A stretch of 64,000 nucleotides of DNA from Lytechinus pictus (taxonomy: Eukaryota). The notes beneath the pieces were generated by a model. That model was not told where the DNA came from. It was given only the letters and a program-made list of their open reading frames with translations, and ran no database searches. The DNA lies in NCBI RefSeq assembly GCF_037042905.1, contig NC_087251.1, positions 34,164,001-34,228,000 on the forward strand, given 5' to 3'. Shown here in pieces: positions 2,024 through 27,289 of this stretch; within the stretch, counting starts at the first letter, position 1, and the number at the start of each line of letters is the position of its first letter. The position numbers and the translations under genes are program-made.

Positions 2024-5000
2024 CTGTAAAGGTAAAAAGAAAGTTTTAAAAATGGAGTGATAACGAAATTCAAATTAATTCATGTAACTTTCAATTACTG
2101 AAGTACAAAAGAATGCACAAGCGCACTGTAGCCTTTGGTGGCGGCCTGTAATGCCGCCAATTTCATGGGAAAACTGAAAAGTGATTTGTGATAAAATAGA
2201 TAATTGTGAATATTTCCAATTTTATTGATCACAAAATGTGGATACTAAGTTGAATCAGATATACTTTGTGGGATATACTTGCGGGGAGCACAATGATTTT
2301 CAGGCATGGAAAGAGAAAGGAAAATTCCAGGACTTTCAAGGTTTTGAAGGATCTGTAAGGACCCTGTCCTTCACCTCTCTCTGAAACCTGGAAGTCATAT
2401 TGTTACATGAAATGCCTTGGTTTTAGGTTAGGGGCAGGGAAAGTGAGTACATGGACAGTGTAGCTTGATAAGTGTCAAGGAATTGCAAAGAAATCCTCAT
2501 TCATTGTGTTTATACTACCATTAAAATGCACTTTAAACAGATATAACTCTAAATATAAACTAATATTTTTACAACAAAGGTTATTCATTATGCCTTAATC
2601 TATTATCATTTGTCCTATCAGTAGACAAATAAATTGTTATGTACAATAATGGCAGATGCAGAAAACCAGAGTAAACAGTCAATGAAAGAATATCTCATTT
2701 ACATTTCAATGTACTCTATACTGATTTTTTTAAATCAAAGATGTACAAGACATTCTATAAGCTATTTATTGAATTCAAACAAAAGAAACCGCTAAATAAA
2801 AGCATGGAACTTTATCAGAGAAAAGTCTTAACTGATTTCCGACTTCATATCTGAACACTATAAATGAATACTTGCTATTCTGAAAACATTTTTAGTTTAT
2901 CATGCATGCCAATGTATGTCTGGCAACTGATACATTTTTTGTACTAGAAATATAATAACAAAACCACACTTCCTTTGGCTGTATATAACTAGCATGTACA
3001 CTATGTACTTAATTTGAACCCAGGCACATTCGTGTATTCTACTACGACTGACTCATGAGGGGTACGGTCATGCTACTATGCTTGTTTCATGGAACACAAG
3101 TTGTAATCATATCTTGCTATTATTTGAGTCATCAATGATGACATGGGGCCGTAAAAGCCCGTGGAGCCTCTAAGCTTGGATTCATACTGCCATCAATAGC
3201 ATGAAAATACTACTCTATTCACAGGACACTTGACATTAAATATTTACAATATTTATTACTGTCAACAGGACATCAATAGTGGTTAACAAATTTGCACAGT
3301 TTTGCATCATGAAGCTTCATAAACACAAAAAGAAAATCAATTTGGTTATCAACTGAAAGAATGTGATTTGGGGTATCAACATGATTGGTCATGTTGGTTG
3401 AGTGAAACTATTGATGGCAGAGCTCAAAAGGAAATGATAAAAACAATACGTTCTCTCTTTATTTTGATAATTATTTATACATGATTACTTTATCTAGTAT
3501 TCATTAATTTATTACTGTTACATCACCCATTATTCCACTTTGTTGTTGGGGTTGAGGTCTGCTAATGTGTTTTACTTTTAAGTATGAGAGCAGAAATTTT
3601 ATTTTTAAAATATAACGAAGCCAAGCATTACATGTACTTTTCCATTATAAATTTAACAATATCAATAGGTGGGGAATTGGTTATTAAAAAGGTTGTGAAT
3701 CATTTTATATCTCGACTGCTTTTTCATAAATCATGCGAGGACTGATGATACAAGTACTTCATAAAACTTCACCCAACAATAATTGAGAGAAACTGTGAGC
3801 TAGAAATAATTGACCCTCTCATCTATTGACATTACACCCCTGTATTTACACTCTTACAAATCACTCTTTACTGCACAGCAGGCACAGTGAAATGATAAAG
3901 AGTATGAAAATAAACTATAGAACAAAAAGTTATATTCAAACAAACAGGAAGAGAAGGTAAAGAGAGTAATAAAAATGGCAGAAACGGACAACAAAAGATG
4001 AAATGTAATGATGCGTAGAAAATAAAAGTACAAAAAATGAAATAAAGAAGTGTGGATGGTAAAGAGATCTGAAGACAAGGAGATTTAGTTCGAGTTAGGA
4101 TTGGCACAAGAAAAAAATTGATTCTGATGATTTTGAGGAAAATATTGGGGAAAGCATTCAATTCAAAACTTGGATTAAACACAAGTTTTACTTAACATTT
4201 TGCATGGCTAAGAATTATAAATGTACTCATTTTGTATTCAGTTCAATATTATTATTAGTGAGTATTTTGCTTAACTTTGGTTTTATAAAGTAAAATACTT
4301 AAATTTGATCTGAATGTGAATTTAAGCATTCTGCTTAGCCAAGTAAAATGCTAAGTAAAGTACTTACAAAATCAATACTTCCAATCGAATACCGGCCCAG
4401 GACATGCTCATCCCACGACTGCGCACCATGCCGTAAACGCGCTTCCTTCTTTGCCCCCCAATTCAAAATGGGTGTATTCCGATCGATCGGGAAGATGGAC
4501 ATGAAATTTTAACATGTTCAAAATTTCACGCCGATCTGATTAAATGCCCGCTCTTTTTCCGTCCCCACAACGCTGTTGCTACGCTGCTTCCAGTTTCCGC
4601 CCTCTGCCAATTACTAATCAGGATGGAGTGGGGTTTCAGATAGAGGTAGTGGAACAGCCCCTTTAAATATAAGGTTAAATACTTAGTCAAATTCATGAGG
4701 TGAATATCAAAATGGCTAACTATTAAAGTAAAATACTATTTTTTCAGACTTGAATTGAATACCAGCCTATGAGTAGGGAATGAAAGGTGGATGTAATGAT
4801 GCAAAAATCAAAAAAAGAAGTAAACTCTACAGCAAGACAAAGGAACAACAATGCAAAAGAAAATACGGTACACGGACAAAAGAGAAGGAAAAGAAAGCAA
4901 AATTAAAAAGCAAAGCACCAAGGTCTTCTAAAAGGCAAACTATAAAAGTTGTTAACAGTTGAATACCCTGATGAAAATCTCTTTGGCACCATGCTGATAC

Positions 5001-5857
5001 AATCATCATGGTTGACAGAATAGGGCCTGTTTTTCTCTCCTTCAGGAAATGGTTCAAATTCCCCATGCACTTTACATCAATGAAATGCATACATGTACAA
5101 CTGTATCTGAATACTAAACTTCTATGGCAACCACCTGTAGATTAAGGTTAACCTGTCTGTAAAGACTACTTGCATGGTTTCTCTAATAATTTTTCTCATA
5201 AAAATATTTTAAAAACATGTATTTCAGGAACCTGTCCATAAGGATCACCTGCTTTATACACAGATTACTTTACTTTACTTTCTTGGGTGATGTTTATAAA
5301 CAAGTTTCACTGTGTATCCAATTTATGTTTACTTGTAATGAGGCAAGCCATCATACATGTTCATGTCAACCAATACATTTTCATGTTTGACATATACATC
5401 CCTTTTTAGAACCTAACATTTTATCAACACAGAAAAATCTATATCGATTTTATAGGCATTCATTTATTTTTTCTATGCATTAAAACTACTACATGTATTT
5501 AAAGGATACTGGTTACTTTTTCTTCGAAAACAAAGGTTTAACGTCAAAGTGTACCATCAACTAAAAGTCACAATTTTTCATTCATACTCTTTAAAAAACC
5601 CAAAAGTACAATCTATATGTATATAAAGCAAAGCAGATTTCTATAATTAGCTCATTTTTCTGCTTGTATGAAAGTGAAACACACTCATTAAGGCCCTCAT
5701 TCCACAGAACAGAACAGAAACCTTTGAAAGATCACTGAACGATCAAGCAAGTTTCATGGTCTTTCTGGGATCTAAAGTCAGTGGAAATGTGGATTAAAAA
5801 ACCGTATAAAGTAATGGTAATTATTTCTTTAATACCACCTACATTGATCAAACTTAC

Positions 5858-6006
5858 CTGAGAATCTTCACTAGACAAACTGGTCTCTGATGGAGACCAA
5901 GGAATACTGGAGGAGGAGATCGCTAAGGAAGAGCGCCGTCGCTTGGATAACGTGCAATCATTAGGAATTTTGAAAGCGCACCGTTTGTGGTAGTTTCCCC
6001 CACACC
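5858..6006 (-). CDS. PRKD: PRKD coding exon 4 (C1a end and linker)
   Basis: Not in ORF track; hand translation [58 protein letters not shown] borders; 149 nt, phase 1 to 0. Confidence 0.95.
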
Positions 6007-6441
6007 CTATAGTGAAAAGAGCAGAAAGATGAAATCGTTTGAAAATTGTTGGACTGTGTGAGGTACTGCGACTTACAAATATTTTTTCATAGATTGTGGG
6101 GAGCGATGAACTCTTTTTGCTCCTCTTCTGAAAGCATTCACAAATTCAAATCAAATGTGTGGATTCCAAGAATTACATTAAAAGTAGATTTAAACAATAT
6201 GGCAGCATAAATGCAACAATATCAATATATTTTCATGTAAGAAATGCTCTAGTATCTTCTGTGGTAATGCAACACTTGAGTAGTGTCAATCCACAAAATT
6301 TTAATACTGATATTTAAACTCCCACTAAATGCATTTTTATTGACTGTAAACTGGTTCCTAGACCTATCTACTATTAAGGTTCATTAATAATATTTATACA
6401 TGTCTGTAGAAAATTGTGGATAACAAAGTTGTTGAGCTCAC

Positions 6442-6573
6442 CATCACATTTCAGTCCTTGTCTGACTAATCCAAATAGCATCTGACCACAGAAGTCACAA
6501 AACGTTGGACTCTTGTAGGAGTGGACATATAAAGTGTGAGGCCGGATCTGTCTGTCTTCAACAGTTGCTGAGG
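6442..6573 (-). CDS. PRKD: PRKD coding exon 3 (C1a domain, first part)
   Basis: tatag|[49 protein letters not shown]; 132 nt, phase 1 to 1. Confidence 0.97.
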
Positions 6574-8840
6574 CTATAGAGCCCAATTTGATTAACATCA
6601 ATGGAATTGAAGATGAAAGAAAAGAAAGACAAGACAATCATCATCTGAAATTCATTTTTAATACGAGGAGCTGAATAATGTGTTTGTTTCAATAAAAGAC
6701 GTTTTACCAAATTAAAAAAAAATACAAGGCTTGAAAAGTTTACAAAAGACATCCTTTTATGAAGAGAAAAACAAACAGGGACTACAATTAACAAACAAAA
6801 TCAAAACAAAGCTGAACACTGAGCGAAACATAAAATAATCTTAACAAACCTAACTATAAACATAACCCTCAAATCCCATTATTCTGATGCAATAAGCTTA
6901 TCATAGCCCTCACCCTTCTCAGAAATTAGGACTGGATCAGTTCTCACTTGAGTAAAATTATTGTATCACCAATGCTCAAATTACAATGGCAAGTCATTAA
7001 CAATACTGTGCAACGATTCTTCGTTTAAATATTAAAGAAATAAATCTTTTTTATTATAATTTATATCAATCAGCAACTGGAGGCATCATTAAGCTACACA
7101 CAATGACATTTTTTAACAATCTTTGCATCGCTTTAGTAAAATACCTACAAATTATTTTGCATGAAAATTTTAATCAGCAAATCTACGGATGTTTCCTGTG
7201 CAGTTGTAAATAATTAGGCCTATTTGTTCATTAGATCTAGCCTGTGTATATTTTAGATATTTTAAATACAATTACTGCATCTACATGTACTGTACAAAGG
7301 GATGTATAAAACCTGAAAATGTAAATACAGGTATTTGCATGTTCAATGTAATAATAATGACAAGGGTATAATTACAACTGAACTAATTTTTACATACAGA
7401 AAGCAGCATTTTAAAACCTCATACAAAGCTTTCACTTGACAAAGAGTACAGATTCACAGTAAATTTTTAACAATCCAAAACAAACTCACTCCATTAGGTC
7501 TCTACAATAAGAAAAGGCATTCTCCATGTATCAAGGTGTGAACAACAATCAGTTTTAAATGTGTAGGGAAATGTACATTTAGCATTACAATATCCCAAGC
7601 TCTGACAGTTAATATCAAAATGACTGCAAAGGACAGGGAGTTTGAAATGGGAAATTGAAAAGCATGCAACAAGGAAAGAATGTGAAAAGTTTCATTAATA
7701 TTCAACAGGTATGTTATTCTTTTTCATATTTCATAATCATACCAAATAACGGATAATGTACATGTATGCCAACTGTACTCTTCAAGATCTTTTAACAAAT
7801 ATATAGTACAAAAAGGTGAGGAAATTTATTCCATTCACTCCCCCCCCCCCCCCCCCCCCCACCTGGCAGAAATGTGAATTGAAAAGTGTGCTGGAAATTC
7901 TCTTCATATTTTGAGTTTTGGTAAAGCCCCGAAAAGTGATGTCACTATTCCAAGTACAAAATACAACATGAATACATGTATGCCCTAAAATGGTAAAGAT
8001 TTTGAGGACATTTTTTCTGTATGTACATGTACATGTAGTTTATTACAAAAAAATTGTGATTTTACATGAATAGTTGTTTTTATATTAAAGGTGTCCGATT
8101 TTGAAAAATTGAATCTCTTCATTTGTTTTTATTCAAAACCACTTTATCAAGAATGGAATGGGCTGGAAATTTTTCAGCATATATAATCTGTCTGTACCTT
8201 TGTAATATCCAATCACTTTGAGGGTAGTGTTCAAATGACTCTTTAAAAAAAATACATACACCTGTAAATATTTCTATCAAGAGGGGATTCTAATTTCCCT
8301 TATGCAAAATTAAGGTTTTCACAAAGAATCAACTGTTGAAAAAAGATTCAAAGGCCAATACACTTTTTAAAATGATACTGAAGTATAATTTGACCCATCC
8401 TACATGTAAAGTTTCAAATGGACTTCAAGTTCAATGCAAGGGCATACCAATAGTAAATCTGTTCAAATACAGTACCATGAAGGATCCAGAATGATACAGT
8501 GTAATAAGAAATATTGTATTTTGGGATGGGGTGCGTTTCTTTATTTTTCTTTTAAAAGTAAGAAAGCAGGGCCTTGCATATATATATATATATATATATA
8601 CACACAATGAATTTCAAGTGAGTATACAATGTAAACTAAAGCAAAACAAATAGTGTTTTTTACTGTGCTTGCATTGCGTTAAATCAAACCTTTTAAAGAC
8701 CAGTGTACAAAGATTATATCAGTTTATTCAATAAGGGTGTAACTGATGCCCTACATTGTTTTGGAAGTGTAATTGCAGAAGACAAGTAAGAAATGAAATA
8801 GAAAAAAAAAGAGGATTTTTTTTCTACTGTATGTACTTGC

Positions 8841-8891
8841 CAGAGGAATTTTGGCTGACGAGGTCATTCATTCGGCTACCATCCCATTGAT
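8841..8891 (-). CDS. PRKD: Candidate PRKD cassette exon (17 aa, DQWDGSRMNDLVSQNSS) with GC donor
   Basis: ~100-nt pyrimidine-rich tract, CTGCAG acceptor, 51 nt, phase 1 to 1, stop-free, CTG|GCAAGT donor. Confidence 0.55.
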
Positions 8892-9294
8892 CTGCAGTCG
8901 AGACAATGAATGAAGGGCGTACATTGACGAACACGGAGGAGGCAGGACAAGAGCAGGGGATGAAGAATGGAGGGAGGAGAAGGAGGCAGAGGTCGACACT
9001 TAACTTTTTTTTCATACATGTACATATATAAGATATACACATAGGATAACAATCAACAAATCTCATGCAAAGTAGCTCTTCAAATCAGGGTGCAAAATAT
9101 ACCATGCAACACAGGGTCATGCAATGAAAGTATTGTGTATGTATCAATAACATAATAAAAATTATCATTTCCTCAAAAGCAACTACACATGTAGTATGTA
9201 CATGTATGTAGAGTACATGTACCTTTCTCCTTAATAGACACACAGTACTGTACAGTACTGTATGTGGAAAAAATATTCATTATTCAACTTTATT

Positions 9295-9524
9295 CAAGGC
9301 TCCACACTAACTTTTTTTCTTTCCGCCAAAATCATCAATTTCATATTCTTGGTGGCCCAAAAAGCAAATTTGCTAGCCCTAAAACAATAGAAAGCATTAC
9401 AATTTATCAATAATTTGGTACCCTGACTGGGCCACCAATTGCAGGCTTTTACAAAAATTTGGTGGCCCCGACTCTCATTTTTGGTTGCCTCGGGCCACCG
9501 GGCCACTGCTAATGTCGAGCCCTG
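9295..9524. mobile_element. hAT-like MITE
   Basis: CAAGGCTCCACA...TGTCGAGCCCTG; flanking direct repeat CTTTATT. Confidence 0.7.
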
Positions 9525-11711
9525 CTTTATTCATTCATTTCATTTCCTTTATTGATATTATAATGGAAGAGTATTTTTATATATTTTTCTTTATTACAAT
9601 GGGCCATTTACATGTACCCCACTTTTCAAATACACATCATATAATTTTTTAAAGACATGTACTATTCATAGAGGAAATGATAACTCCTGTGGGATAGCAA
9701 CATCTCCATATCCATGTGTAAATCAAAACAAGGCCAAATCAAAATATTTCAACAATAAAACAACCACAAGGAAAAAAAAACTGTTAACCATTTTGTAAAT
9801 CGAATTAAGAAATTAACAGTCACATAAAACTTTGCAAGTCAGTGCAACCAAAATTACATCTCAAACACGTGATACATGTATGTGACTATATTTTGTTGTA
9901 CATTGTAAGAAGCTTTGTACAGGACTTTTCCTTTCTCCTACTTTTAATGGAATATGGATTTAAATGCATTTCACAAACGTGATTGGTTAAAATCTGCCAA
10001 CATTTTGGCACGTGTATGGTGTCCTTTTTTTTAATTTCTCAATGGTTATTCTGCTTTGAAAGAAAAATATATTACAAAGCAAAAGTAAATCAAATATTGG
10101 CAACAATGTGGCCTTAAAAATGTTCAATATCATGCTATTACAAGTTTGCATTAAAATATCCACCTCAGACTTTGCTTCCAATTTTGTATGTGTAAATTTG
10201 TATTTAGTCATTGAAAAACAGCTGAAATATTTTTGTTTATCATCATCAAAGAAAGGATTTTCATTCATGACACTGTAAATGGCACACCCAAATTTAGATT
10301 TTTTAATTATCTACTTTATTCATAACCAATTAAAAAAAAAAAAAAACAAGTCATTTGCACTACACAATTTATGATATACTGTCTTATTCACCAATCACCA
10401 ATGTTGTGTTATAATCAAAGTTGTTTTTTTCCAGTTTTACAATCTGGAAATCTGAATGGTTTTTAAGTTGAACCCTCCAAATGTATTAATGCTCAAATAA
10501 TTTTGAAGGGTATACAAGTGCTGTGTTTTTTATGATTCACTGGTGAAAAATGAATTCAGCAAGTGGAGAATAAATGTAATTTTAAATTGTTTACATCCCA
10601 TGTGCACAAGTGTATTTTCAATGTGAGATTTGTCCCCTTTCTATGCACAATCTAAATGTATTTCAAAACTTGTTTGCAAAATATTCAGTAAATTTATGTT
10701 TAATATGTGCATATAAATTTAGTAAAATCAGATTTCTAGCAAAATCAGAAAAGGCATGCAAAGTTGCAAACAAAATCGATCCATACATATTGGAATTCAA
10801 AATCATACAGCAGTCACTGTAAACTTGGTGTCTTAAACAGACAAACAATAATTAAAAATCATATGGCGTACATGTAAATAGATATGATCGCGAATGTTTT
10901 AATTGCATAATTTAAGAGTAATTAATTTCATTCATACAAATAAAATAATTATCTGTAAAAAAACAATCTAATACAAAGCATACATTTGTATTAATGCAAT
11001 ATCATCACTAATGTAAATTTTAATATTTATATTGTTTTATGATGATTTACGAACAGAGATATAAAAAGTATGTTTTTTTTTTATTTCATTAATTGATTTT
11101 TAATTGATTTCATTATTATTATGTTTAAGAGATCGGGATAACACAAAACAACGTATGAATGATGGGCTAAAAATTCATCACTTTCAGTAGCTACTATTAG
11201 CTTTATGTATTAAAAGCTTTATTTTTTGACCATGTGTAAACTTTTATCAAATAAATAAATGATTATATATTTCAAGTACCACATTAAAGCGAAATATCAC
11301 AGAGTGATCCGTTACACACTGTACTAATGATTTCACAATGGTTCACAACAGAAAAAAAATTAGTATGATTTCACGAGGGAACATTTTATCCAGTTCAAAT
11401 GGAAATGGTGGGTAATCAGTCGTGCAATTAGCTCGATAATCAAAACAGTTAATGCGTACTTAGGAATGGGCGATTTCAAGTATGGTGTTGTTTATGTTTG
11501 TTTGGTGGTGAGAGCAAGAATGAGACTACCTACATATATGTACATTGAGCTTTATACCAATACGGTTTACACCTTGATAACAAAACACTCATCTTTAATT
11601 CAGTTGTGTATCTGGTGTTACATGTAGAGCTTACATGTACATACATGTATGCCTGAACACCAGCACAAATTTTCAACACCAAACTGGAAGTCGATTGTGT
11701 TAATATCTTAC

Positions 11712-11850
11712 CTGATAATACGGCCTCAATGAGGGCACCCTCCGTCACATCGTTAACTGAGGTTACGGGTGTGAGAGAGTAGCTCGCACCTGGATTGTGC
11801 TTGAAGAGCAGAAGCTTGTCATATACTCCATAAAAATCATGCTCTGGAAA
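11712..11850 (-). CDS. PRKD: PRKD coding exon 2 (ULD second half)
   Basis: ttttttggcag|FPEHDFYGVYDKLLLFKH...EGALIEAVLS|GTAAG; 139 nt, phase 0 to 1; typical PKD FPE.GFYG.YDK.LLF.H motif. Confidence 0.95.
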
Positions 11851-12185
11851 CTGCCAAAAAAAAAATGAAATCAAATGAAATAATTAAGAAAACCATTTCA
11901 AGGGTACTGTAAAGTTGCAGTAAACACTAATTTCAGGAGAAAGTCTGTAACTTCCGGGGGGGGGGGGGGGGGAGGCTATTCGAATTATAACATGATACCT
12001 ACACTACAGTATGTGCCACACCAAAGCCGGAAATAGGGGGCTCTGGAACTAAATCTTGGTCTTGAAAGTGGGGGTCTCCAGAAAGGCTCTTGAATCATAC
12101 CCCAAATCATGCTCATATTTGATGCTTGTTTTGCTAATTTCTCAGCAATTATACCAATTCTTCCAGAATCCTTTGGTACATGTAC

Positions 12186-12992
12186 CAGGGCTGTTATCGT
12201 TAAGAAAATTCTCTGTCGATATATCGCTAAAAATATTTTTCCGATATCGGCAAAAGAACATAATAAAAAATAAATCAATACGCATTTTTTATGCATTATA
12301 GCGATGACACAATACCGGTACTCGCATTGGTCAAAATTTGTATCTGCCACTGTACCAAGAACGCTTTAAAATCCGCGTTCATCGGATATAAACGATTACA
12401 TAACATCTTTTAACAAACATATTTAGCATAAATACATCCTCACGATATTAGCATTATTTTAAGGTTGGATGAAGTTTTATCGATCATTTTGGGGCTTTTT
12501 GGACATTGTTCTGAGCAGCCAACATCTTTTGCCTATCCGCCATTTTGATATGCTGTACATCTTCGAACGTAGAGGGTAGCAACAAACGGCCGTGTACTGC
12601 CTTCTACGTTGGTACTTGCATTTGTGAATGTTTTCAAGATATGATCGAATGGAGTCGAGTGCAGTCACGATGTTTGGATTGTCATGAGCGAAGTGAGATC
12701 ATGTTTTGTGGCTAGTAAATATTTGTATTTTGTTGAGATTTTGGAGTAATTCCTGTTGCTGTTCTGTGCATTTTGAGGAAAATACGTTTTCCGTGATTTT
12801 CTGTTTGAGAAGTCGCTTTCAAAAGGCCGTTTCCGTTCATTCCGTGAAATCGCGGAAAATCACTGTCATGTCCCTACATACATGTAATAGCGAATATTAT
12901 CGACAACGAAAGGTTATCGATATCGCTAAGTGACAAAAAACAAGCGATTATCGACAAGACTAGCGATAAAGAGGTTATCGATAACAGCCCTA
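12186..12992. mobile_element. hAT-like non-autonomous element
   Basis: CAGGGCTGTTATCG...CGATAACAGCCCTA TIRs with subterminal CGATAT motifs; TSD not evident. Confidence 0.65.
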
Positions 12993-15900
12993 TATACTGT
13001 ACCAAAATATGTTTAATTATATACACGTAAGACATTTTAATGGTCATTTGACAATTGACTACGTACAAACTCATTTTCAAATTTTTACAACTCGCATCGA
13101 GGCTATGTTCACCACTGCTTTTGCTCTGGTGGTATGGGCTGTTTTGTCCAACAAGGCCAAAAGCTGTGAATGTTAGGGTCCAGAAAGGATAGGAATAAAA
13201 ATGGGGGGGGTAGTCTTTTTCTTATTGTACATATGTACACAAAACAATAAGAGGTTGTTTTCAATACTCAAGTAAATTTCATACTTGTAGTTAACGTCAG
13301 TTCCAATTGACAATTGGGTCGACTACAGTTTGGAAATTTATTAGACCTTTTTCCCACATAAATCTGCTAATGGTATGTATGGTCTCATCATTAAGGCCAT
13401 TTCCCATGCTGTATGTACAATATGTTGTACCTGTCTAAACTTTGAACATACATGTAACAAGAATTTGTACAGAAATTTGAAGGACAGTGAACAGGAAGAG
13501 CCCTTCCTGCTCTGGAACACTCTTATGTAATCAATGTCTTTCCTGAGAATGCACTACAATATGTATGTAGGCCTAAGTTGTCCATGTTATCCTCCTATTC
13601 AAATGTCCAATTCGCCAGGCTTTCAAGCCACTCACATTCATAAATCAAATGAGAAATCATATAATGTAATGAATACATAAACTGCAAAAATAATCAATGA
13701 TACACATGGGAAATTCTTCAATTTTAAATGTACACTGCAGAAATTATCTTGACCAAAGCTCAAATTTTTATTTTAAACTCTTTTTCCTAAAATAATAATT
13801 CACTGCATATACATGTACCTGTACATGTTTTGGTGTTTTTTTTTTTTTGAGGGGTGGACATGAAAATTAGTGTTTGTCATTTCTAATTTCAATAATTTCA
13901 ATGAAAAGTACTTTCTAGCGAGTATACACATGAAATGACAAAAACTAGAGTGAAGAATATGATCAGTGCTCTATTCTGAGCAATGCAATGCCATGTTTTA
14001 GAAACATGTCATGCAAAACCTGTTACAACTATAATCCATGGGCTGTCATAGTAGCAATCTCTCAGACAGCCTGATGTTCTGACTTCATCATGAGTAATAC
14101 AACATTGATCAGCAGTGTCTAATACCAATTGACAAGATAAAACAGTACCCCATTTTGCAATGGGAAAGAAGCTTCATTTTTCAGGAATTGGGATTTCAAG
14201 TTTTCAAACATTTCATGGTATATACCAGACCAAAGAAATGTTTATTATTATTATTTATTTATATTTTTGGTGCCGACTCTTCACAACCTTACCTACAGCC
14301 TTAATAATCTGCAACGTATAAGCTTTAAACACTGTGGTGAATGGTGATTTTTTCTGGGGCTCTTTTTCATTTTCTATGGCTCTTTTGAAGCTTTTCAGGG
14401 GCAAAATTGTCTTTCCCCTGTGGTACATAATGTATACATGCATGGAGAAATACATGTGAGAATACTGAATGTTAAAGGCCAGGCTGTAAAACAGCCTCCT
14501 TTTGACAATGGAAGGTCTTTACATACATTAAACTCTGTAGTATTACTGATAATCAATTGAATGTTTAGAAGGTGGCAGGTAATTTCTCAACTCCTGAAAG
14601 GAAAAAAAAATGCAAAAAATATCCACAGTGTATTGGGTGTGGAACAGCATACACAGGTGTATTTATATATACAAGAATATGAAAACTTGAGGAAGGTGGA
14701 TATCTTTCACAGACCTACCATTTTTCAGAAATGAAGATTTAATAGTGATAAATTTTAGCAGAAACAAAAAATATTTGAAATACCCGTACTATCATTGCAT
14801 AAAAGTAGGCCTACATGTACATATAGCAAATGTCTTCAGAATTATGCATGCAATTCAGCACGCTGCATTACTTACTCTTTGATGTCCTGTCCAAAATAAA
14901 ATAAGTAGGACTTTACCTTTACATGTAATATACATGTATGTATATGTACGATTTGCATTTTCCTTAATATATGCACGGACTGTATCGGAAATACGTGTAC
15001 TGTTGTACCGGTAGTCCTTGGTTGATATTGATGGTAACAGTATTAATGCATGCAATGTACACGTAAGGAATACAATTCAAGTTTGGCTCATTTTGGCCAT
15101 TTAACTCATATCTTGACCTCTACAAAATGAAATTTCTTACTTGTACAAGTTATAATAGCAATAATACCATTAAATAATAAATGTGTTTACATTGTTTATA
15201 TGAAAGATAGACTGTGAGGCAAAAAATAAAATACATGAAGTAAAAAATCTCTACTTGAACCCAATCCAAAAGTAAAAATTCTCAATTCAAGTCTTCTATT
15301 TCATCATTACCATACATAGGCCTATTCGCATGTACATGTATCTGGAAAATATATTTTTTTTAAAGACCCAACAAAACGTGGGTAGCGGCAACCATCTTAA
15401 AACATATCAACGATGCCCATATTGTGTCTCTGTCACACACTTGAGTGCATGGCTCATACTGACAGTGTGTGCATACACACACTCACACCAATCATGAATT
15501 ATTCACCCTTACCATCAGCAAATGTGCCTGTAATCAATTAGCATGTTAAGGACATTTTGTCAGCAGCCTAGCCCAATTGTTTTACATTGAAGGCAGTAAG
15601 TCCCTCTGGTAAAGAATTAATTCATTTAATAATGGACCCCTCTTTGTTGGGGGTCTCTAATTAGAAAAGAAAGCAGAAATGGTGTTTGCATAATTACATG
15701 TATGTGCATTCAACAGTTCAAGTACAGGTTTAATACTTTCTGTACAATGGAAGTGGTATACCACAGGTTCTACAATGATTACGAGCAGTGTACAACATGT
15801 ACCAAGTACTAGTACTTTCAAATTTATATAAGTTAGGATTACAATCTAAACTCTTTTTAATGCATGTGATTAAATCTGGAAAAAAAATCGTCAGTGAGAT

Positions 15901-16038
15901 ACCCCCAAAATACTGTATACACTGAGGCCTATACATCTACATGTACTGTATGTACATGAAAAATCTACTGAATACCGGTACTGAACTTCACAACATGTAC
16001 ACATTGAAATTAACAAAAAAAAAAGAAAGATGTATTAA

Positions 16039-16640
16039 AGGGATGGTCCAGGCTGAAAATATTTATATCTAAATAAAGAGTAAAATTCACAGAGCAAAAT
16101 GCTGAAAATTTCATCAAAATCGGATAACACATAACGAAGTTACTGAATTTTAAAGTTTATAAATATTTTGTGAAAACGTTTATATACACATCATCATGAA
16201 TATTCATTAGGTGGGCTGATGATGTCACATCCCCACTTTCCTTTTCCTTATGTTATTACATGAAATCATAAATGTTTCATTTTTTCATACATGTGCAAAT
16301 GATGTGTTTCCATTATGATGAAATAAGTTGCGGCAATAAATATTTAATGCACTTAATCAGTTGTCAATCCAGTTGTTTTAGTTCTAAGAAGAACATTTTT
16401 GAATAAACCTAATTTCATATAATAAAATACAAAAGAACAAGTGGGGATATGACATAATCAGCCCACCTAATGAATATTCACAAAGACATGCCTAGAACTG
16501 TTTCAACGGAATAATGCAAATATTTAAAGTTCAATAACTTTGTTATTTGTTATCCGATTTTAATCAAATTTTCAGCATTTTGCTCTGTGAATTTTACTCT
16601 ATTTATTGAGATAGAAATATCTCTAGCCTGGACCAACCCT
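16039..16640. mobile_element. Kolobok-type MITE, family A (AGGGATGGTCC ends)
   Basis: TTAA|AGGGATGGTCCAGGCT...AGCCTGGACCAACCCT|TTAA; long internal inverted repeats. Confidence 0.88.
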
Positions 16641-17162
16641 TTAAGTATTCAAATTTCTATATTATCTAGAATGCTGAATTCAATCTACATGTATATTGCG
16701 GAACAACATAATTCTAAAAACATAAGAAAAATGCATCTCATGTTTCTACCCTCAATTATCCACATGTGTTGTATTTCATTTCACAAAAAAAAAATAAACA
16801 CATTCAAGCTCTTTTTCATGAACAAACCTCTTCACTACAAGTATGTGTGGGTGTAATGAGCTTTAATACAGTCACTGGTTACCATGCAAATTTCATAGAT
16901 CTACATTTCCTTATTGGAAATCTAACCTTACTGCTATAATATCACAAGCTTAGATATCCTCATTTCAAACTCCGTGAAGCGCCCCTGGAAATTTATTCAA
17001 GATTCTCATAATGTATTAACACATGCTATATGTTGCATTGAAATAATAAATAATAGCTCCATTATTTTTCCTTTTGGAATGTGAACTTTGTGATAATCAG
17101 ACTTTTTACTGAAGGAGAAAGCTAACTCTATCTGAAGTTGAAGCAAACCTCAAGAAGTTTAT

Positions 17163-17595
17163 GACACCGTTCTCACTACCTTCCTAAAACTAGTTTAACG
17201 TGTAGTGAGAATGGTTGAAGGGATCTTGGAAGCGATCTTCCAAACCGGTTCAGAAAACCACCTAGCGATGTAGTTTTAAAATCGCTTTGCCTCGTTAAAC
17301 TGGTTTTACCATAAGTGAGGACACAACCGTTCTTCGGGAAGCGATCTTCGCACATTTTGAGCGCGCTACTGCACACGACAGGTGTAGAATGTCTACGTTG
17401 CGGCTTCGAATTTCGCACAAAATGTGTCACCCCACTGAGAGCATTTCCATAGCAACAAGATCACTTTACGTGTCTACGTGAAGTGATTTTGAAAAACACT
17501 TTCATGTAGGAATGCTAGCGAAGAGATCTTCCAAACTGGTTTCCTGAATTGGTTTCCAGTAAACTTGTTTTAGAAAGCGTAATGAGAACGGCCTC
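17163..17595. mobile_element. TIR MITE (possibly PIF/Harbinger)
   Basis: ~35-bp imperfect TIR ccgttctca.tac..t.ctaaaac.agttt. Confidence 0.65.
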
Positions 17596-17659
17596 AAAGT
17601 GAACAAATATTTTTGGAAAAAGTAATTACATTCAAGGTGATTTTTTTAAATATCATATC

Positions 17660-18149
17660 ATTGCAATTTTGACATTTTAAAATTTAGCAATATTTTGTGA
17701 AAACAGTCTTCATGAATATTCATTAGGTGGGCTGATGATGTCACATCTCCACTTGTTCTTTTGTATGTTATTATATGAAATTAGGTTTATTCAAATTTTT
17801 TCCTCCAAGAACTAGAAAAATTAGATTGACAACTGATTTAGTGCATTAGATATTTATTGCTGCAACTAATTTCATTATAAGGGAGACATATTATTCACAC
17901 AAGTATGAAATAATGAAAAAAAAATGATTTTATGTAATAACATAAGAAAACGGAAAGTGGAGATGTGACATCATCAGCCCACCTAATGAATATTCATGAC
18001 GACTGTTTTTACGAAATATTGCTAAACTTTAAACTTCAATAACTTTATTATTTGTTATCTGATTTTGATGAAATTTTCGGCATTTTGCTCAATGAATTCT
18101 ACTCTATGTATTATTAAAGATATAAATATTTTCAGCCCGGACCATCCCT
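17660..18149. mobile_element. Kolobok-type MITE family A, left end missing
   Basis: Homologous to 16039-16640; ends CCCGGACCATCCCT|TTAA. Confidence 0.8.
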
Positions 18150-19790
18150 TTAAGGTATTCCACTCATACACCGTAATCTGGTGACTTTAATACCAAGGCC
18201 TACTCTTTCAAACCGTATCGATCACCCATAATTTTACTAAAACTTATTCAGGCCTCGAAATATCCAATAATTATTTTCCGCATTCGTACCCACCTGATCC
18301 AGACCCTTCTGGGGTACGGTAAGTTCCTGAAGATACAAGAATGCACTGTAAGTTCTGAGTAGCAGACCTAGCATGCCATTCAAACTCCCTGGCTCAGTGA
18401 CTCCTGTGCAGGGGAGGAGGGGGGGGGGGGCTGTTGTTGCTTATGAAATGCGAGACTAAGAACGAGATTGCAGTCTGCATATACAGGAGTGCTTGAGAAC
18501 TGGAAATTTACATGAAATGGGGTTTTGAGAAATACATGTGTATCTAGCAACGCATTGTAAGGAGAACCAAAGCTCACATACAAATTTCGTGCACATCCAC
18601 GATAGGGCGATTTAGTGCTCGTTGTCATTGGCACTGGATCTTTTAATATTTGGGGAGATCAAGCTGTAAAACCAGAGAACAAGAGATTTCGATAGCGTAT
18701 CTTAGGAACAGGAGAGAACGGGTTATTCAGTGAAAAGGGTGAAAATGATACATGTATGAATGCTTGGGAAAAGCTGGAGAGAGGTAAAATATTGCCATTA
18801 TATGTGAGTACCCCCCCCCACCCCCCCTGGTTCCTGTGCCCAGCATACTCACTGGATGGGAAAGTTTTCATAATTTGATTTCACTCTGCGAGAATACCCA
18901 AAACCTTGAGAAAATCCCTGCCCTGAGATAGTTCTTGTAATTTTGAAAGTACCTGTATGTACCGAGTGTATTTTCTTTCAGGAATATTTCAAGTAATTTG
19001 CTTTCACACTGCCAAAAACAGCTGGTACTTTGTGATTGATGTAGAATATCAGAGTAAATTTGTCAATCTTAAAATGCCTGGTATTCTCTTTTTTTTTTTA
19101 TCGGTTTGAAATCACATAATTCACATTTTCAAATAGTTTGGTCATAGTCTACAGGTATGCCATACTTTGAACATGGCAAGAAACTTTCATGGGGGACGAA
19201 TGAGACCATCGAATGAGACCATCAAACGATGATCACCAATGTCATCCATCACGATATTGCCACCATACAGGAAATGAACTATCACTATCAGTGATAAGAA
19301 TATTGATATCATAATACTAAAAACATTCTAAGGAAAATGTTACAGGTGAAGGATGTCTGCATGAGCACTACATATTTGCAATACAGGTACATGCTCTATA
19401 CACAAACACTCTGAAAGAGTGAGAGAGTACCGCTCTTGTGAGTAATACATGTGGGAAATGACATGATTAAAATCGCCTCCGTACAAGTGTATCCACACTG
19501 GAGATTGGGAAAAGAAAGGGAGACAAAACGGTGGAAGTCTATCAATCATCGGAAGGTCAAAGACACCCAGGTTTCTTCTCTCATACCCTCTCTCTCTCAT
19601 TCTTTCTAGGCAGCGTGAAAAACAATGATGGGTTACGCCCGATGAATAGTGGGGTAATTCACTGGGAATTAACTTCAATTATCCATACAGGTGTGAGAGT
19701 GCATGCTACGTACATGTACAGATAACCATGTTAAGACTCAATGTGCATGTACATGTATGCATTACCTGCATACAATGCAGAATATAGTAA

Positions 19791-20376
19791 AGGAGAATGA
19801 AACCTTTAGAACAATATAGCTTGTGTGAAAACAGACAAATCAAAGAAACAGATCAACAAAAGTTTGAGAAAAATCGGACAAATAATGAGAAAGTTATGAG
19901 CATTTGAATATTGCAATCACTAATGCTATGGAGATCCTCAAATTGGCAATGCGACAAAGATGCGTGATGTCACTTGTGAACAACTCTCCCTATTACTTTA
20001 ATATATATTTCACTTGAATTGTCTCTTTTATCACATCTATCAGTAGATCATGTATTCTTTTTATAGGAGGGCATGTAATACAGATTTTTAAAGAATACAT
20101 CATGGATAAAGAGTTTGTATCACCATAAGAAAAAGCAAAAAGAGACATTTTGAGGGTATTTTATAGTCCATCAAAGGGACAGTTGTTCACATGTGACATC
20201 ACACATCCTTGTCGCATTGCCAATGGGAGGATCTCCATAGCATTAGTGATTGCAATATTCAAATGATCATAACTTTCTCATTGTTTGTCCGATTTTTCTC
20301 AATACTTTCTTTTTTCTTATTCTTTGATTTTTCTGTTTCGACACGAGCCTACTTGTTCTAAATGTTTCATTTCCCT
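19791..20376. mobile_element. Kolobok-type MITE, family B (AGGAGAATGAAAC ends)
   Basis: gTAA|AGGAGAATGAAAC...GTTTCATTTCCCT|TTAA; internal inverted repeats. Confidence 0.85.
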
Positions 20377-20638
20377 TTAACTATAAAGAATCAGCAGCAA
20401 AAGACAATTGATCTACTAGAATTTACTGATTGAATATTAGGCCTAAGCCAGACTCATTGGGCCACCAGGGCCTGACCAATGCTGACAGTCAATGGGGCAA
20501 TTTCCTAGACCTATGGACAAAAGGAATTTGTAGAATAAATAAAAAATTAAGTGTCAAATAACCAGAGTAAAAATGAAATTAAAGTGGTAATGGAAATAAC
20601 AATATTGTACAGGAATACAAGAAACAAGATAGAGTTAA

Positions 20639-21207
20639 AGGAGAATGAAACCTTTGGAACAAGATAACTTGTGTGAAAACAGAAAAAATCAAAGAAACAG
20701 ATCAACGAAAGTTTGAGAAAAATCGAACAAATAATGAAAAAGTAATGAGCATTTGAATATTGCGATCACTAATGCTATGGAGATCCTCACATTGGCAATG
20801 CGACAAAGATGTGTGATGTCACTTGTGAACAACTCTCCCCATTACTTTAGTACAGTATATATTTCACTTAAACTGCCTCTCTTATCACATCTACCAGTAT
20901 CAGTATATCATGTGTTCTTTCTATAGGAGGGCATGTAATATAGATTTTAAAGAATACATCATGGATAAAGAGTTTGTATTACCATAAGAAAAATAAACAT
21001 TTTGGGGGTATTTTATAGTCCATCAAAGGGAAAGTTTTTCACATGTGACATCACACATCCTTGCCGCATTGCCAATGTGAGGATCTCCATAGCATTAGTG
21101 ATTGCAATATCATTATTTGTCAGATTTTTCTCAAACTTTCTTTGTTCTTATTCTTTGATTTTTCTGTTTCGACACAAGCCTAATTGTTCAAAAGGTTTCA
21201 TTCCCCT
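20639..21207. mobile_element. Kolobok-type MITE family B, second copy
   Basis: TTAA|AGGAGAATGAAACC...GGTTTCATTCCCCT|TTAA; colinear with 19791-20376. Confidence 0.88.
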
Positions 21208-21721
21208 TTAACATTTAAGTCGTGATTTCTAATGAAACATGCTGAGAAATAGTTTGGCATTTTGTCATTTTTCTTGCTTCTTATGGCTAATAACACATTG
21301 GGGGTTTTAATATAAAATTGGCCTTTATATCTTTAACTACTTAAGTCAATATTCATGAGAATCCTTTCCTAGTAAATTGTGAATATTTTGCTAGGCCCAT
21401 GCATTGTGTGATTTGGGAGTAATCATATTTAAAAGTTTTCTACAGTCCTATTACAGGGAATATCTGAAATCTGTAAAAATTCTTTACAGTACTCAGCGAA
21501 ACATAAAGAAATTAAATGTCATTTGATCGAAATTCATTCAAGCAGGCCATCCCACATATGTACAGTACACAGGTATAGGCCTATAGCATCAGACAAACTG
21601 TATCATTCATACAATGTACATAAACTTGGTCTGTATTAAGGGCGTGGTGTACTGTACAAGACCTTTTTTTCATCATCAAGAACATTGCTTGATATATAGT
21701 GTACCTAAAACAATAACACTG

Positions 21722-22762
21722 AACAAAAGCGGAACGCCTCTGGCAGTCTCGTCTACATTATGCGATTCGATATACTGTATCAGCAGTGCTGACAGTGACT
21801 TTGAAAACAGCTATGGAATAATTATTCACAAAAGAGAACATTAATAATATAATAAAATATTATGTCCATTGACCCAAAATGACCTTTCACCATGATCATG
21901 TGACCTACATGTAAAACATGTGCAAAACAATCATTCATACTTGATACTGTATGTCTATGTTTCGCGAACTAGATCTAAGTTATGATGCCAACAACAAATA
22001 CCCCCAACTCGGCCGGAGTTCATTGACCTTTAATGACCTTTGATCTTGGTCATATGACCTGAAACATGCACAGGATATTCATGGATATATGGTTGCTCTT
22101 ATGTCCAAGTTTCATGAATTAGATCCATAAACTTTTAAAGTTATGATGACCATTCCACAAACACCCCCAACATTGCCAAAGTTCATTGACCCTAAATGAC
22201 CTTTGACCTTGGTCATGTGACCTGAATCTCGCACAGGACGTTCAGGGATACTTGATTGCTCTTTATGTCCAAGTTACATGAACTACATGTACATGTATTG
22301 TATGATGACAATTCGTCAAATACCCCCAACATGGCCAAAGTTTGTTGACCCTAAGTGACCTTTGACATTAGTCACGTGACCTGAAACTCAGACAGGATCT
22401 TCAAAGATACACCATTACCCCTATGTCTAAGTTTCATGAACTAGGCCCAAATACTTTCTAAGTTATAATGACAGTTTCGAATTCTTAACCTTGGTTAAGC
22501 TTTCGATATTGATTCCCCCAACATGGTCTAAGTTCATTGACCCAAAATTACCTTTGACCTTGGTCATGTGACCTGAAACTCAGACAGGATATTCAACTAC
22601 TTGATTACCCTTATCTCCAAGTTTCATGTACAAGGTCCATGTACTTTCTAAGTTATGATGACATTTCAAAACTTAACCTTGGTTAAGATTTCAATGGTGA
22701 CGACGGTGGCGGCCACCGTCGCAAAAGCAAGCCTATAGTCTCGCTCTGCTATGCAAACGAGT
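21722..22762 (-). mobile_element. Helentron-type non-autonomous element (HINE/DINE-1-like) with ~140-nt internal tandem repeats
   Basis: About six units of gacctttgaccttggtcatgtgacctgaaac; reverse complement of 50747-51606; head fragment also at 23914-24120. Confidence 0.75.
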
Positions 22763-25362: not shown

Positions 25363-25619
25363 TCTATTATTTATTTCTACAACGATACTCAGCAGGATCC
25401 ATAAGTCAGGATGTAGTGCTAAGGAAATATCTTGGGTGCTCATCTGCAGTGTATACATTACTTGTTGGTGCTTTTAAAACATTGTGCTGTTTATGCAAGC
25501 AAAAATCTAGTTCCTTGGTTTAGATGTTGGTTGGAAGCACCCCCCCCCCCTTGAAGGCCTCCAATGAAGGGGCATCAAGGATGGTTTTGGGAAGCGCATT
25601 CCACGCAGTCATTGTCCTG
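25363..25619 (-). mobile_element. 3' end of a CR1-like LINE
   Basis: RTMTAWNALPKTILDAPSLEAFK C-terminal motif, 3' UTR and A-rich tail. Confidence 0.75.
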
Positions 25620-26671
25620 TAGCGTCCGTAACGTTGGGGAAGTACAATAAGAAACAAGATGGCGGCGTAAACATCGGGCAAGTCTCTTCCGTCTTTTCAC
25701 AATATTTTTTCATTTTTTTGATGAATTCTTGTTTTAAAAATAACAACGAGAGCGTAGAAATGTCGGAAATGAAGTTTTATCCCATGTACATGATTTAGAG
25801 CTAGATCTTTTAGAAGGAAAGTAGAAATCTCGGGGGTGAAAGTTTCAGGTTTTGGCTTCCTTTGTGTGGGTCTATGAGATAGAAGGCCTGGCTTCGTATG
25901 AGAGTAACCTTACGTTAGTAAATGATTTTTACTCTCTAGAAGCCGCCTGGCTAGTCTTGACTGCAGATAAAACGAGGTGAGTTCGAGTCCCAACTAAGGT
26001 AAGCAACAGTAAAAAATGATAGAAAAAATCTAAGGTGAACAAATCGGAAGTCTCAACAATCTTGTTATTTTTGGTGGGGGGTGCATATGCACTCACACGT
26101 ATTGCGAGGTTAGTAGTATACTAACCTCGCACCATGAACCGTGTTTGGCAGTGGATTTCTAACTAGTGGGTCGCGCGTGCTGGGATCTCACTTCTGGTGT
26201 CCACAACACACAACTTCTATGGCTTGATTTTTCTGTGCGCGGCGGCATGTAATGAACCCTTGGGTGGTGCATATGGAACTCTTTCCCAGCTTATTCTGCG
26301 GTCAAAGGTCATTTCCAACGCTCAGTGCACTGACTTACCATACACTTGTAAAAAAAATAATGCAGACTATTTCTGACATTGCGCAAATGACAACAGAGCC
26401 TCAGAGGCAGATCACTCAGCTGGACAATGCAAACACCACATACTACATAGCCATGGTTTTCAATTGTCTGGCTGGTGATCGTTGTTTTCCATTTAACAAA
26501 AGCCAAGGTGGCAGCGTATCCATCAGCCAATTTTTCTATGATCCATTCCTTTAAAATAAAATTTAGCATTTCACATATAAAAGTGATTTCAAAAGTTATT
26601 TTGTCAAAAAAAAACAACATGCAGATCGAACTTTTAAATTTTAACATCTGCTGGCAGGTAATGATTTTCCA

Positions 26672-27289
26672 GGGGCGTTTCACAAAGCACCATTCTTAAA
26701 CTTTACATGCACATGATACTAAACACATACCGGTACATGTAATCTGATTTATTGACCAATGCGGTGCGATGATCTTTAAGTGCGACTTTACCTTCTCTAA
26801 AAGACTCTAGCTAGTCCCTAGACCAAAAGCTTCGGTCTCTGTTATGTTGGTTGTTCAGCTGAACTCCGTTGGCTTCACTCACCAAATACAGAGACCGAAG
26901 TTCTAGCGCGATCTGTACAGGGGACTCAATGGCCATATGTTTATGTACTTAAGATCGGATAAAACGGGGAAGTGAATTTGCGCGACAGCCGAGGTAAGTC
27001 ACTGTTTTTGTTCCTTTTAACTCGATTTTTCTCCGTTTCTTGGCAATTAATGCCAAGAGGGAATATCAATTTGCATTTTGGTCGCATTAATTTTCAAAAT
27101 TTTTATTGATTAAAGACAAAAATTGAAGAGCCCCGACGGGGGGATTTTGCATTGCAAGTCCCCTAATGGTGGCTGCACGCTAGCGAGCCGTCTGTGTATG
27201 AGGAGAACTTAAAAAAAAAATGTTAAAAAACTCCTCAAAACAGACGGCTGCCAGCTGTCTAGCTAGTCCCAATCTTTGTGAAACATCCC
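26672..27289. mobile_element. PIF/Harbinger-like MITE hosting Academ copy 1
   Basis: GGGGCGTTTCACAAAG...CTTTGTGAAACATCCC; CAG-like flanks. Confidence 0.65.
26819..27261 (+). mobile_element. AcademH-like non-autonomous DNA transposon, copy 1
   Basis: TAGAC...GTCTA termini; perfect 9-bp TSD GCTAGTCCC; subterminal hairpins CTTCGGTCTCTG/CAGAGACCGAAG and AGCCGTCTG/CAGACGGCT. Confidence 0.8.

Follow-up and report, generated by a model that had tools for sequence, protein, structure and literature searches.

TA-flanked palindromes in the introns of a Lytechinus pictus PRKD gene as probable excision scars of cut-and-paste transposons

A palindrome field in the PRKD introns

The window analyzed here, the whole 64-kb stretch of Lytechinus pictus DNA, contains the 5' half of a minus-strand PRKD gene, whose introns harbor a dense field of the palindromic word TACATGTA together with related words of the form TA-NNNN-TA. 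The mapped features are as follows.

880–960, minus strand: PRKD exon
1766–2026, minus strand: PRKD exon, second C1 domain (match edges approximate)
5858–6007, minus strand: PRKD exon (match edges approximate)
6425–6595, minus strand: PRKD exon, first C1 domain (match edges approximate)
8842–8895, minus strand: short PRKD exon, present in P0001; P0003 gives no match
11713–11853, minus strand: PRKD exon, ubiquitin-like domain (PRKD match; PF25525)
27609–27782, minus strand: first PRKD coding exon, residues 1-58 (tblastn with P0001, 100% identity)
3629–26741, no strand: field of 45 TACATGTA, 6 TAGGCCTA, 4 TACCGGTA and 3 TAGATCTA

None of the 52 TACATGTA copies in the window falls inside the seven mapped coding exons. 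The sequence-only reading had counted about 44 copies in the first 27 kb and about 7 elsewhere, and this is borne out, with 45 copies at 3629-26741 and 7 beyond (45 of 52 within the first 27,608 bases, binomial P = 1e-10). The density of the word is 16 per 10 kb in the field, reaching 27-32 in the introns at 6,596-11,712 and 15-19 in intron 1, and upstream of the first coding exon it falls to 1.2; PRKD runs ~15 kb further past the window start, where the density is 3 per 10 kb. The rough expectation of two to three copies per window given in the same reading also holds, since base composition predicts 2.27 copies and dinucleotide shuffles of the window (n = 100) yielded a mean of 1.65 and a maximum of 7. 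Markov models of orders 2-6 trained on the unmasked window expect 3.2, 5.3, 11.2, 25.0 and 41.3 copies, the values for the high orders being circular because the training window still contained TACATGTA. With the word masked, an order-3 model expects 1.8 copies versus the 45 observed.

Genome-wide, TACATGTA is present in 224,046 copies (2.76 per 10 kb), ~190,000 of them above background, and 54 evenly spread 10-kb stretches (540 kb) contain 148 copies versus 17-21 expected. Hence, the seven copies in the other 37 kb of the window represent the ordinary genome level, and the local excess amounts to approximately sixfold. A literature search, with most subscription papers outside its scope, did not find this genome-wide excess described. 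The enrichment pertains to the exact word (148 vs 17 in 540 kb) and not to a graded family of near-matches: its 12 one-mismatch neighbours are near background in the 540 kb (443 vs 382), variants with different outer bases do not exceed background, and the +4 word TACATA/TATGTA is at background (519 vs 478 expected in 540 kb). The count for TAGGCCTATAGGCCTA was 37, which is uninformative.

TACATGTA is commoner where DNA is CpG-poor (ρ = -0.49) and scarcest near homeobox genes (0.9 per 10 kb). The suggestion that the density of the words records historical chromatin accessibility found no support in the features compared, which were CpG depletion, gene class and position in the gene: density tracks CpG-poor DNA and the 5' half of the gene, TAGGCCTA does not follow the TACATGTA gradient, and the neighbourhoods of young Tc1 elements and of an 820-bp MITE present ordinary densities (2.33 and 1.89 per 10 kb).

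Six-letter insertions at TA

Words located within repeats were compared with the homologous repeat copies. Of 93 informative TACATGTA copies, 24 exceeded their homologues by exactly six letters (14 of the 47 for which at least three homologues were available); the corresponding figures were 7 of 33 for TAGGCCTA and 4 of 20 for TACCGGTA, versus 3 of 377 for control TA-NNNN-TA words (Fisher P = 2e-15). The shorter alleles of the +6 TACATGTA copies read TA in 18 of 24 instances. Where this can be checked, TACATGTA words are often six-letter insertions at an ancestral TA. A further 38 of the 93 copies were neither +6 nor shared (6 of equal length, 4 at +5 or +7, 1 at +12 and 27 other or ambiguous). 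For TAGATCTA, +6 was seen in only 1 of 34 testable cases, and the proposal that the palindromes are +6 insertions at ancestral TA is therefore upheld for the first three words and not for the fourth. The inner letters are foreign and not taken from the flanks; TG before combined with CA after TACATGTA occurs in 8 of 369 cases (10.4 expected), and TG-TA-CA is found at 1 of 18 empty TA sites. Individual words and chains of words considered here are listed below.

12879–12886, no strand: TACATGTA in a repeat, +6 versus its single homologue, which reads TA
14806–14825, no strand: chain TAGGCCTA-CATGTA-CATATA, compared with organism A contigs X1, X2 and X3/X4
15695–15702, no strand: TACATGTA, two substitutions versus organism A (15699, 15700) at equal length
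15973–15980, no strand: TACCGGTA, in organism A without the six letters and with a single TA kept (X3 and X4, one sample)
21906–21913, no strand: TACATGTA in a 159-bp repeat copy, +6 versus 11 of 14 homologues, the majority of which read TG, not TA
26728–26741, no strand: mixed chain TACCGGTA-CATGTA, last copy before exon 1
45245–45258, no strand: mixed chain TACATGTA-GATCTA, outside PRKD

In organism A, one relative with ~94% identity, seven to eight words are readable, and five of them keep their length. An origin by point substitution, which had been named as grounds for refutation, is contradicted at 15973, where organism A is six letters shorter, and would fit 15695, where the substitutions are either evidence against insertion or the result of later decay. 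By contig-offset arithmetic over 10 kb, organism A has at least three gains of +6 and 18 letters fewer net over 8376-8419, a span that includes the TACATGTA at 8401. The first 14 letters of the chain at 14806 are covered in organism A, with the last six absent from X1, X2 six letters shorter net and a different gap in X3/X4. An assembly artefact was rejected for the words at 14806 and 14812, since organism A contigs cover them. Contigs of organism B are identical over 11074-11741, 14792-15360 and 15355-16060, although they may not be independent.

All six chains proposed on inspection were located (8024, 14806, 22284, 23433, 26728 and 45245), and linkage of the words via shared TAs exceeds chance across the genome, mixed pairs included. 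The mixed chain TAGGCCTACATGTA occurs 2,421 times, versus 7 for the reversed control, and the homo-chain TACATGTACATGTA 9,353 times, ~12x independence and above the prediction from mixed chains. Complete Tc1-type MITEs were found sitting in the TA of existing TACATGTA words, in agreement with the idea that each word provides new TA targets.

Candidate sources and alternative origins

The words were most likely left behind when TA-targeting cut-and-paste elements of the IS630-Tc1-mariner/pogo group excised, a reading that we regard as probable. Following known chemistry, the element would duplicate TA on insertion and, on leaving, would be cut two bases inside each end. Germ-line end joining that filled both overhangs would then leave TA, the first two and last two bases of the element, and TA, converting TA into TA-CATG-TA, TA-GGCC-TA or TA-CCGG-TA. 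Intronic six-letter scars would be nearly neutral and could drift to fixation while whole elements were lost, and the two TAs of each scar would allow further hits.

Resident families match part of this scheme. An intact Tc1 family has TA|CA ends (TA at 78 of 79 ends), a second CA-ended resident is the Tc1-type 820-bp CAGTGC MITE, and resident pogo DDE_1 elements end in TA|CCGTA. The inner dinucleotides CA and CC match the termini of these elements; for GG and GA, no candidate could be confirmed as a TA-targeting family with such ends, and the one left rests on a single copy. Candidates discarded include the GGCTTAC family as GG end (outer flank conserved), the GAGGCG family (CAG conserved outside TA), the GACC/GACA family at window position 26,819 (target duplication longer than TA) and, as CA source, one young DDE_1 family (ends TA|TGG). 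Minos-type carry-over of four bases was also rejected, as the best ten enriched TA-NNNN-TA words include no non-palindromic word with CACT/CAGT ends.

The young Tc1 family and the 820-bp MITE were rejected as the main source because their AWA-TA target choice differs from the scar flanks. The base before TA is A in 88-90% of cases for these elements, with A at 87 of 99 young Tc1 ends and 57 of 66 MITE ends in the direct comparison, whereas scars present A, C, G and T at 39, 20, 25 and 16% (A in 272 of 698 sides) and empty sites give counts of 10/11/9/6 (A in 10 of 36 sides; P = 3e-18 and 5e-12). Serial excision scarring of the gene body, as first proposed, thus retains the insertion at TA, the chains and the re-hit scars, but its main source family does not appear to be either of the two abundant Tc1 families. 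If the words are scars, the main CA-ended source could be a pogo-type element that is undemanding about flanks and prefers 5' gene bodies, a guess on which we would lean neither way. A CA-ended pogo element was not found among the DDE_1 family ends read in this genome, no TIR pair was detected within 1.5 kb of 25 of 25 DDE_1 loci, and element, scar and empty alleles were not seen together at one site among the gaps listed for contigs of a few individuals.

The alternative that retains most weight, though we consider it unlikely, is that the six letters are added at TA without passage of a whole element, for instance by a transposase that has been domesticated or misfires, or by a repair enzyme joining short end fragments into a cut TA. 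It would accommodate the disparity between 224,046 words and families that each survive in hundreds to a few thousand copies, the lack of a resident family fitting both ends and flanks, and the dominance of +6 here versus +4 in worm Tc1. Against it, the inner CA and CC equal the ends of resident TA-targeting families, and the same behaviour is shared by three different cores, as expected of separate element families. No enzyme is known to add six letters at TA without a whole element.

Derivation from abundant CACT-ended (CACTG) elements with 2-bp target duplications, which we take to be CMC/EnSpm-like, is very unlikely. One such family has 4,646 ends, with CA termini and flank bases compatible with those of the scars at -1 and -2 (P = 0.99, 0.89; n = 35). 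However, although 4 of 16 whole copies carry a TG or CA duplication, TG-CATG-TG stays at the background level (58 vs 52.9), none of its 95 informative cases is +6 (80 are shared), and scars are sparse beside the copies of this family (0.73 per 10 kb). CMC/EnSpm-like transposases, moreover, hairpin the flank and leave no end bases behind. A CACT-ended source is largely refuted, with a strictly TA-specific sister family as the conceivable exception.

Marginally less credible still are selected transcription factor sites, of Irx-type homeodomain or Myb proteins, clustering in first introns. TACATGTA has been cited as the site that Irx prefers (PMC3520976), and Phytophthora PsMyb37 binds it (PMC11134190); the density peak in first introns, the drop at exon 1 and the five words of conserved length in organism A would also fit. 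Selection of sites does not, however, predict a word that appears as one insertion within single repeat copies, that is depleted near homeobox genes and whose variants with other outer bases are not enriched. Some TACATGTA copies may nonetheless have later been used as putative transcription factor sites. Slippage or six-base tandem duplication (hexamer microsatellites, hAT-type footprints of TGTACA sites) and CpG decay are the least credible of all: the homo-chain excess and the preference for CpG-poor DNA point their way, but the empty-site sequences, with two-sided TG..CA flanks at chance, refute duplication as the main origin, mixed chains cannot slip, and the CpG precursor TACGCGTA, with 6 copies in 540 kb, is rare, while decay would leave length unchanged. 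A contribution of slippage may be limited to homo-chains and TAGATCTA arrays.

Scars as a possible record of past transposition and comparison with known systems

Excisions usually leave no countable record, and insertion preferences are read from survivors thinned by selection. A uniform scar in 224,046 copies would allow past cut-and-paste traffic to be counted and mapped per family, and a scar origin would explain one of the top over-represented words of the genome. It is possible, though doubtful, that the ~190,000 fixed scars, a hundredfold over surviving elements, form such a per-family fossil map, in which a CA-ended pogo-type element at the 5' bodies of germ-line-expressed genes would have written TACATGTA, a differently distributed family would have written TAGGCCTA, and scars would have given rise to further hits; the abundant Phytophthora TACATGTA "promoter motif" may share this origin and have been co-opted by a transcription factor afterwards. 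Motif finders are cautioned that TACATGTA doubles as an Irx/Myb site.

The comparisons that follow draw on the available portions of the cited sources. In Phytophthora, motif-1/AM-20 is TACATGTA itself, an identical and highly abundant palindrome in non-coding DNA that is read as a PsMyb37 site, and a footprint origin is there dismissed without test (PMC3520976, PMC11134190); the urchin words, in contrast, are shown to originate by insertion, with any binding role putative. Caenorhabditis elegans Tc1 (10.1101/2022.08.01.502254, PMC3520976, PMC4490562) shares with the urchin the TA duplication, the CA/TG end bases, TACATGTA itself and resident CA-ended Tc1-type elements. As a Tc1 footprint in the worm, however, TACATGTA is called rare and is not the usual product (PMC3520976), 78% of footprints being +4 (10.1101/2022.08.01.502254). 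Worm germ-line repair yields varied deletions, whereas the +6 form dominates in the urchin and its flanks are unlike those of resident Tc1; a germ-line repair outcome unlike that of the worm would be indicated.

Passer, a pogo element from a fish genome (PMC9976928, PMC7386202), targets AAGTACTT, favours the 5' gene bodies of expressed genes and, as a further point of resemblance, leaves footprints of 0-4 bp (PMC9976928), a TA target with G before it and a 5' bias that would fit the G-rich flanks and 5' peak of the scars; the urchin pogo-type ends TA|CCGTA also match TACCGGTA. It differs in that its data come from human cell lines and the urchin has no CA-ended pogo found. Sleeping Beauty and ZB likewise leave end bases between duplicated TAs (PMC7913693, 10.1101/659086), but these are three, giving +5, and there is a strong target preference for AT palindromes (PMC7913693). 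The words TACAGTA/TACTGTA are modestly enriched here (114 vs 73 in 540 kb; 20 vs 8.5 in the field).

The word field in PRKD and its distribution across the genome

The eight-letter palindrome TACATGTA (the word) occurs 52 times in the window, 45 times within 3,629-26,741 and 7 times farther on, in line with the sequence-only reading (about 44 and about 7), whose six word chains were also recovered in place. A dinucleotide-shuffled window contains 1.65 instances on average, and only four homopolymers outnumber TACATGTA among the eight-letter words of the window. The excess persists against an order-3 Markov background with the word masked, which predicts 1.8 instances in the first 27.6 kb (45 observed). 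The window lies in a protein kinase D (PRKD) gene: one exon matches the sea-urchin protein (Lytechinus, Strongylocentrotus) with full identity, and the protein P0001 maps to seven minus-strand coding exons between 27,782 and 880, in a gene that extends into the next 15 kb.

Density of TACATGTA along the window (instances per 10 kb)
2,027-5,857: 7.8
6,596-11,712: 26.7 and 31.9
PRKD intron 1, two halves: 15.3 and 19.0
Upstream of PRKD exon 1: 1.2
Last 28 kb of the window: 2.1

The best single change point in density falls at 24,950, and the field is bounded by the first PRKD exon, a boundary newly described here. Since the 3' half of PRKD, although equally CpG-poor, carries only 3 instances per 10 kb, the field corresponds to the 5' half of the gene and not to its entirety. 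A short PRKD exon (8,842-8,895, minus strand), matched by P0001 and by none of the Strongylocentrotus or Diadema proteins, lies inside the densest part of the field.

The L. pictus assembly (G000, 812 Mb, where the window is C7:34,164,001-34,228,000) contains 224,046 instances, or 2.76 per 10 kb. Across 54 evenly spread 10-kb stretches, TACATGTA was found 148 times (20.8 expected, order 3) and was strongly clumped (variance 10.6, with 19 in one stretch); combined with the genome count, the sampled expectation places some 190,000 instances above background. The sister palindromes TAGGCCTA (49 versus 3.0 expected), TAGATCTA (33 versus 6.5) and TACCGGTA (14 versus 2.6) were also in excess, the remaining TA-bounded palindromes, TA repeat aside, exceeded expectation by no more than 2-3 fold, with low counts, and one-mismatch neighbours of TACATGTA were hardly elevated (443 versus 382). 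A second dense block, L086 (C15:15,000,001-15,010,000 region set; C15:5,000,001-5,010,000), holds 19 TACATGTA and 8 TAGGCCTA in 10 kb.

Density of TACATGTA per 10 kb was 3.1 in DEAD-box stretches (n=20) versus 0.9 in homeobox stretches (n=20; P=1.4e-4), with no difference between DEAD-box and random stretches (P=0.16), and it was lower with higher CpG observed/expected ratios (ρ=-0.49, n=94); for TAGGCCTA, the gene-class and CpG trends were both absent (0.85 and 1.15). CpG depletion is taken here as a proxy of gene-body methylation. The TACATGTA pattern would be consistent with an element family that prefers DNA which is transcribed and methylated, or that leaves such DNA more easily; it does not demonstrate the earlier suggestion that density may record chromatin accessibility. 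At C2:20,425,236-20,478,361, about 19 almost identical homeobox copies lie in tandem, spaced 2.6-2.9 kb apart.

Six-letter insertions at TA and their chaining

For the repeat-copy test, 248-base stretches around each word were searched via BLAST against 290 sequences (1.93 Mb), leaving out 24 overlapping, duplicate or satellite loci, and the length of the word copy was compared with that of homologous repeat copies. A homologue was available for 93 of 478 TACATGTA instances, of which 24 were exactly six letters longer (+6), 4 were at +5/+7 and 1 at +12, the rest being shared (31), of equal length (6) or other/ambiguous (27); with at least three homologues, 14/47 were exactly +6. Among 1,500 other TA-NNNN-TA words, by comparison, 3 of 377 informative cases were +6 (Fisher P=2e-15), and a smaller prior run was consistent (13/45 versus 15/1,388). 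Two window copies (12879, 21906) belong to the 24 +6 cases. The majority allele was TA in 18 of the 24, and only 1 of these 18 was TG-TA-CA; the proposed origin of the words by +6 insertion at ancestral TA is thus upheld. A preceding TG and a following CA were found together at 8 of 369 instances (10.4 expected), which shows that the core was not copied from its flanks. The +6 state was found for TAGGCCTA in 7/33 and TACCGGTA in 4/20, and for TAGATCTA in only 1/34; the loss of TAGATCTA from the scar set, to which it had been assigned, is new here.

Contigs of organism A, a relative about 94% identical, were compared with window 14,760-16,025, with 12 of 40 gaps and 40 of 71 substitutions listed. 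Among these, organism A lacks six letters at TACCGGTA 15973 and retains the TA, as anticipated for an insertion. The CATATA following word 14812 is absent from contig X1, X2 is six letters shorter there, and X3/X4 (one sample) carry a different gap. Offset arithmetic indicates that length is kept at 14806, 14812, 15006, 15333 and 15938, whereas 14920-14938 is diverged and unreadable. Most words in this segment are therefore older than the split, and one or two are new. Word 15695 reads TACACCTA in organism A, a difference of two substitutions that insertion does not explain.

The proposed chaining through shared TAs also held. The chain TACATGTACATGTA occurs 9,353 times in the genome and the mixed chain TAGGCCTACATGTA 2,421 times (reversed control, 7), where independent TA use would give about 780 and 510. 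With local density accounted for (1.06 Mb), the counts were 14 versus 2.6 for TACATGTACATGTA and 11 versus 2.6 for all mixed pairs. Slippage is impossible as a source of mixed chains; it may add to homo-chains, whose excess is larger. A pattern search located 69 places where a CA(G/C)TG end adjoins TACATGTA; the far end was visible in 19 of the first 30, with TA there in 18 of the 19 (three being one locus copied). These are whole MITEs inserted into the TA of a scar. Among unselected ends of this MITE type, TACATGTA adjoins 2/52, a small number.

Candidate source elements and the excision reading

Transposon excision footprints are textbook knowledge. Established here are the +6 at TA, the foreign core, the three cores, chaining, and resident CA- and CC-ended elements, and we regard it as fairly probable that the words are excision scars. 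The transposase would cut with a two-base stagger inside the element ends, germ-line end joining with fill-in would close the gap, and the six-letter scars would then be fixed neutrally. The worm Tc1 footprint is +4 in 78% of cases and only rarely TACATGTA, whereas in L. pictus the +4 word is at background and TACATGTA abounds; worm germ-line repair via polymerase theta, as described in PMC4490562, yields varied deletions. Both count against the simplest fill-in version. In the literature searched, which included few subscription journals, there was no description of a single +6 form that can be counted across a genome and whose map differs between families.

The inner dinucleotides had been expected to match the ends of resident TA-targeting elements, and matches were obtained for CA and CC; among the resident elements examined, none could be confirmed as a TA-targeting family with GG or GA ends. 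Pogo-type DDE_1 elements starting TA|CCGTA (4 loci) fit TACCGGTA, a match new here, and 14 TACATGTA in 31 kb around 25 resident pogo-type loci give only a weak hint. According to PMC9976928, the pogo element Passer targets AAGTACTT, prefers expressed genes and the 5' part of gene bodies, and has footprints of 0-4 bp. The CACTG-ended family (4,646 ends) has flank bases that fit the scars; it also duplicates TG/CA, yet the corresponding TG-bounded scar is absent, and its rejection is new here. Near-identical intact Tc1-type copies (at least 150; 1.9 kb; ends TA|CACTAC) are flanked by TA at 78/79 ends, and an 820-bp CAGTGC MITE contributes about 2,000 ends. In young Tc1 and this MITE, A precedes the TA at 86-90% of ends, versus 272 A, 138 C, 174 G and 114 T at scars (P=3e-18 and 5e-12) and 10 A, 11 C, 9 G and 6 T at 18 empty sites, and the flanks of 40 young Tc1 copies show no TACATGTA excess (2.33 per 10 kb, as in random stretches; P=0.94). 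The failure of the abundant Tc1 families to match the scars' target sites is new here, and they were rejected as main source. Given these misfits, and with no GG/GA family confirmed, none of the examined families could be named as the main source.

Other elements

A young multi-copy DDE_1 element (L325:3286-7046, L326; 98% identity, TA|TGG ends) has a reading frame of 514 residues, with a cysteine-rich finger at the C-terminus. The scar predicted for this element, TATGCATA, shows no enrichment (19 versus 14). Further elements in the window are:

16,030-16,650; 17,669-18,160; 19,780-20,390; 20,622-21,212; 60,968-61,581: MITEs in very high copy number, about 0.6 kb long and starting (T)TAAAGG
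26,819-27,261: element ending TAGAC..GTCTA that duplicates about 9 bp of target and lies 350 bases from PRKD exon 1
30,016-30,849: CACTG-ended element, 2-bp CA duplication
56,796-57,134, minus strand: open frame that by impression resembles a LINE ORF1 start (putative, coiled-coil-like), with no Pfam match
59,082-59,820, minus strand: broken P-element/THAP9-type transposase remnant (PF12017)

The (T)TAAAGG MITEs apparently target TTAA-like sites, and one shows extreme contig depth. The TACATGTA at 30519, inside the CACTG-ended element, was found in one of two homologues. Elsewhere in the assembly, L074 (C10:15,000,001-15,010,000) is a satellite with a 573-bp unit around a 242-bp CACTG-ended MITE. 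The very young Tc1-type family (L009-L028, L154-L193; at least 150 copies genome-wide) shows about 99.5% identity and a 364-residue open frame; many copies are longer inverted doubles of 2.0-2.9 kb, in which two 5' or two 3' portions of the transposase adjoin in opposite orientation, with unchanged outer ends and variable breakpoints.
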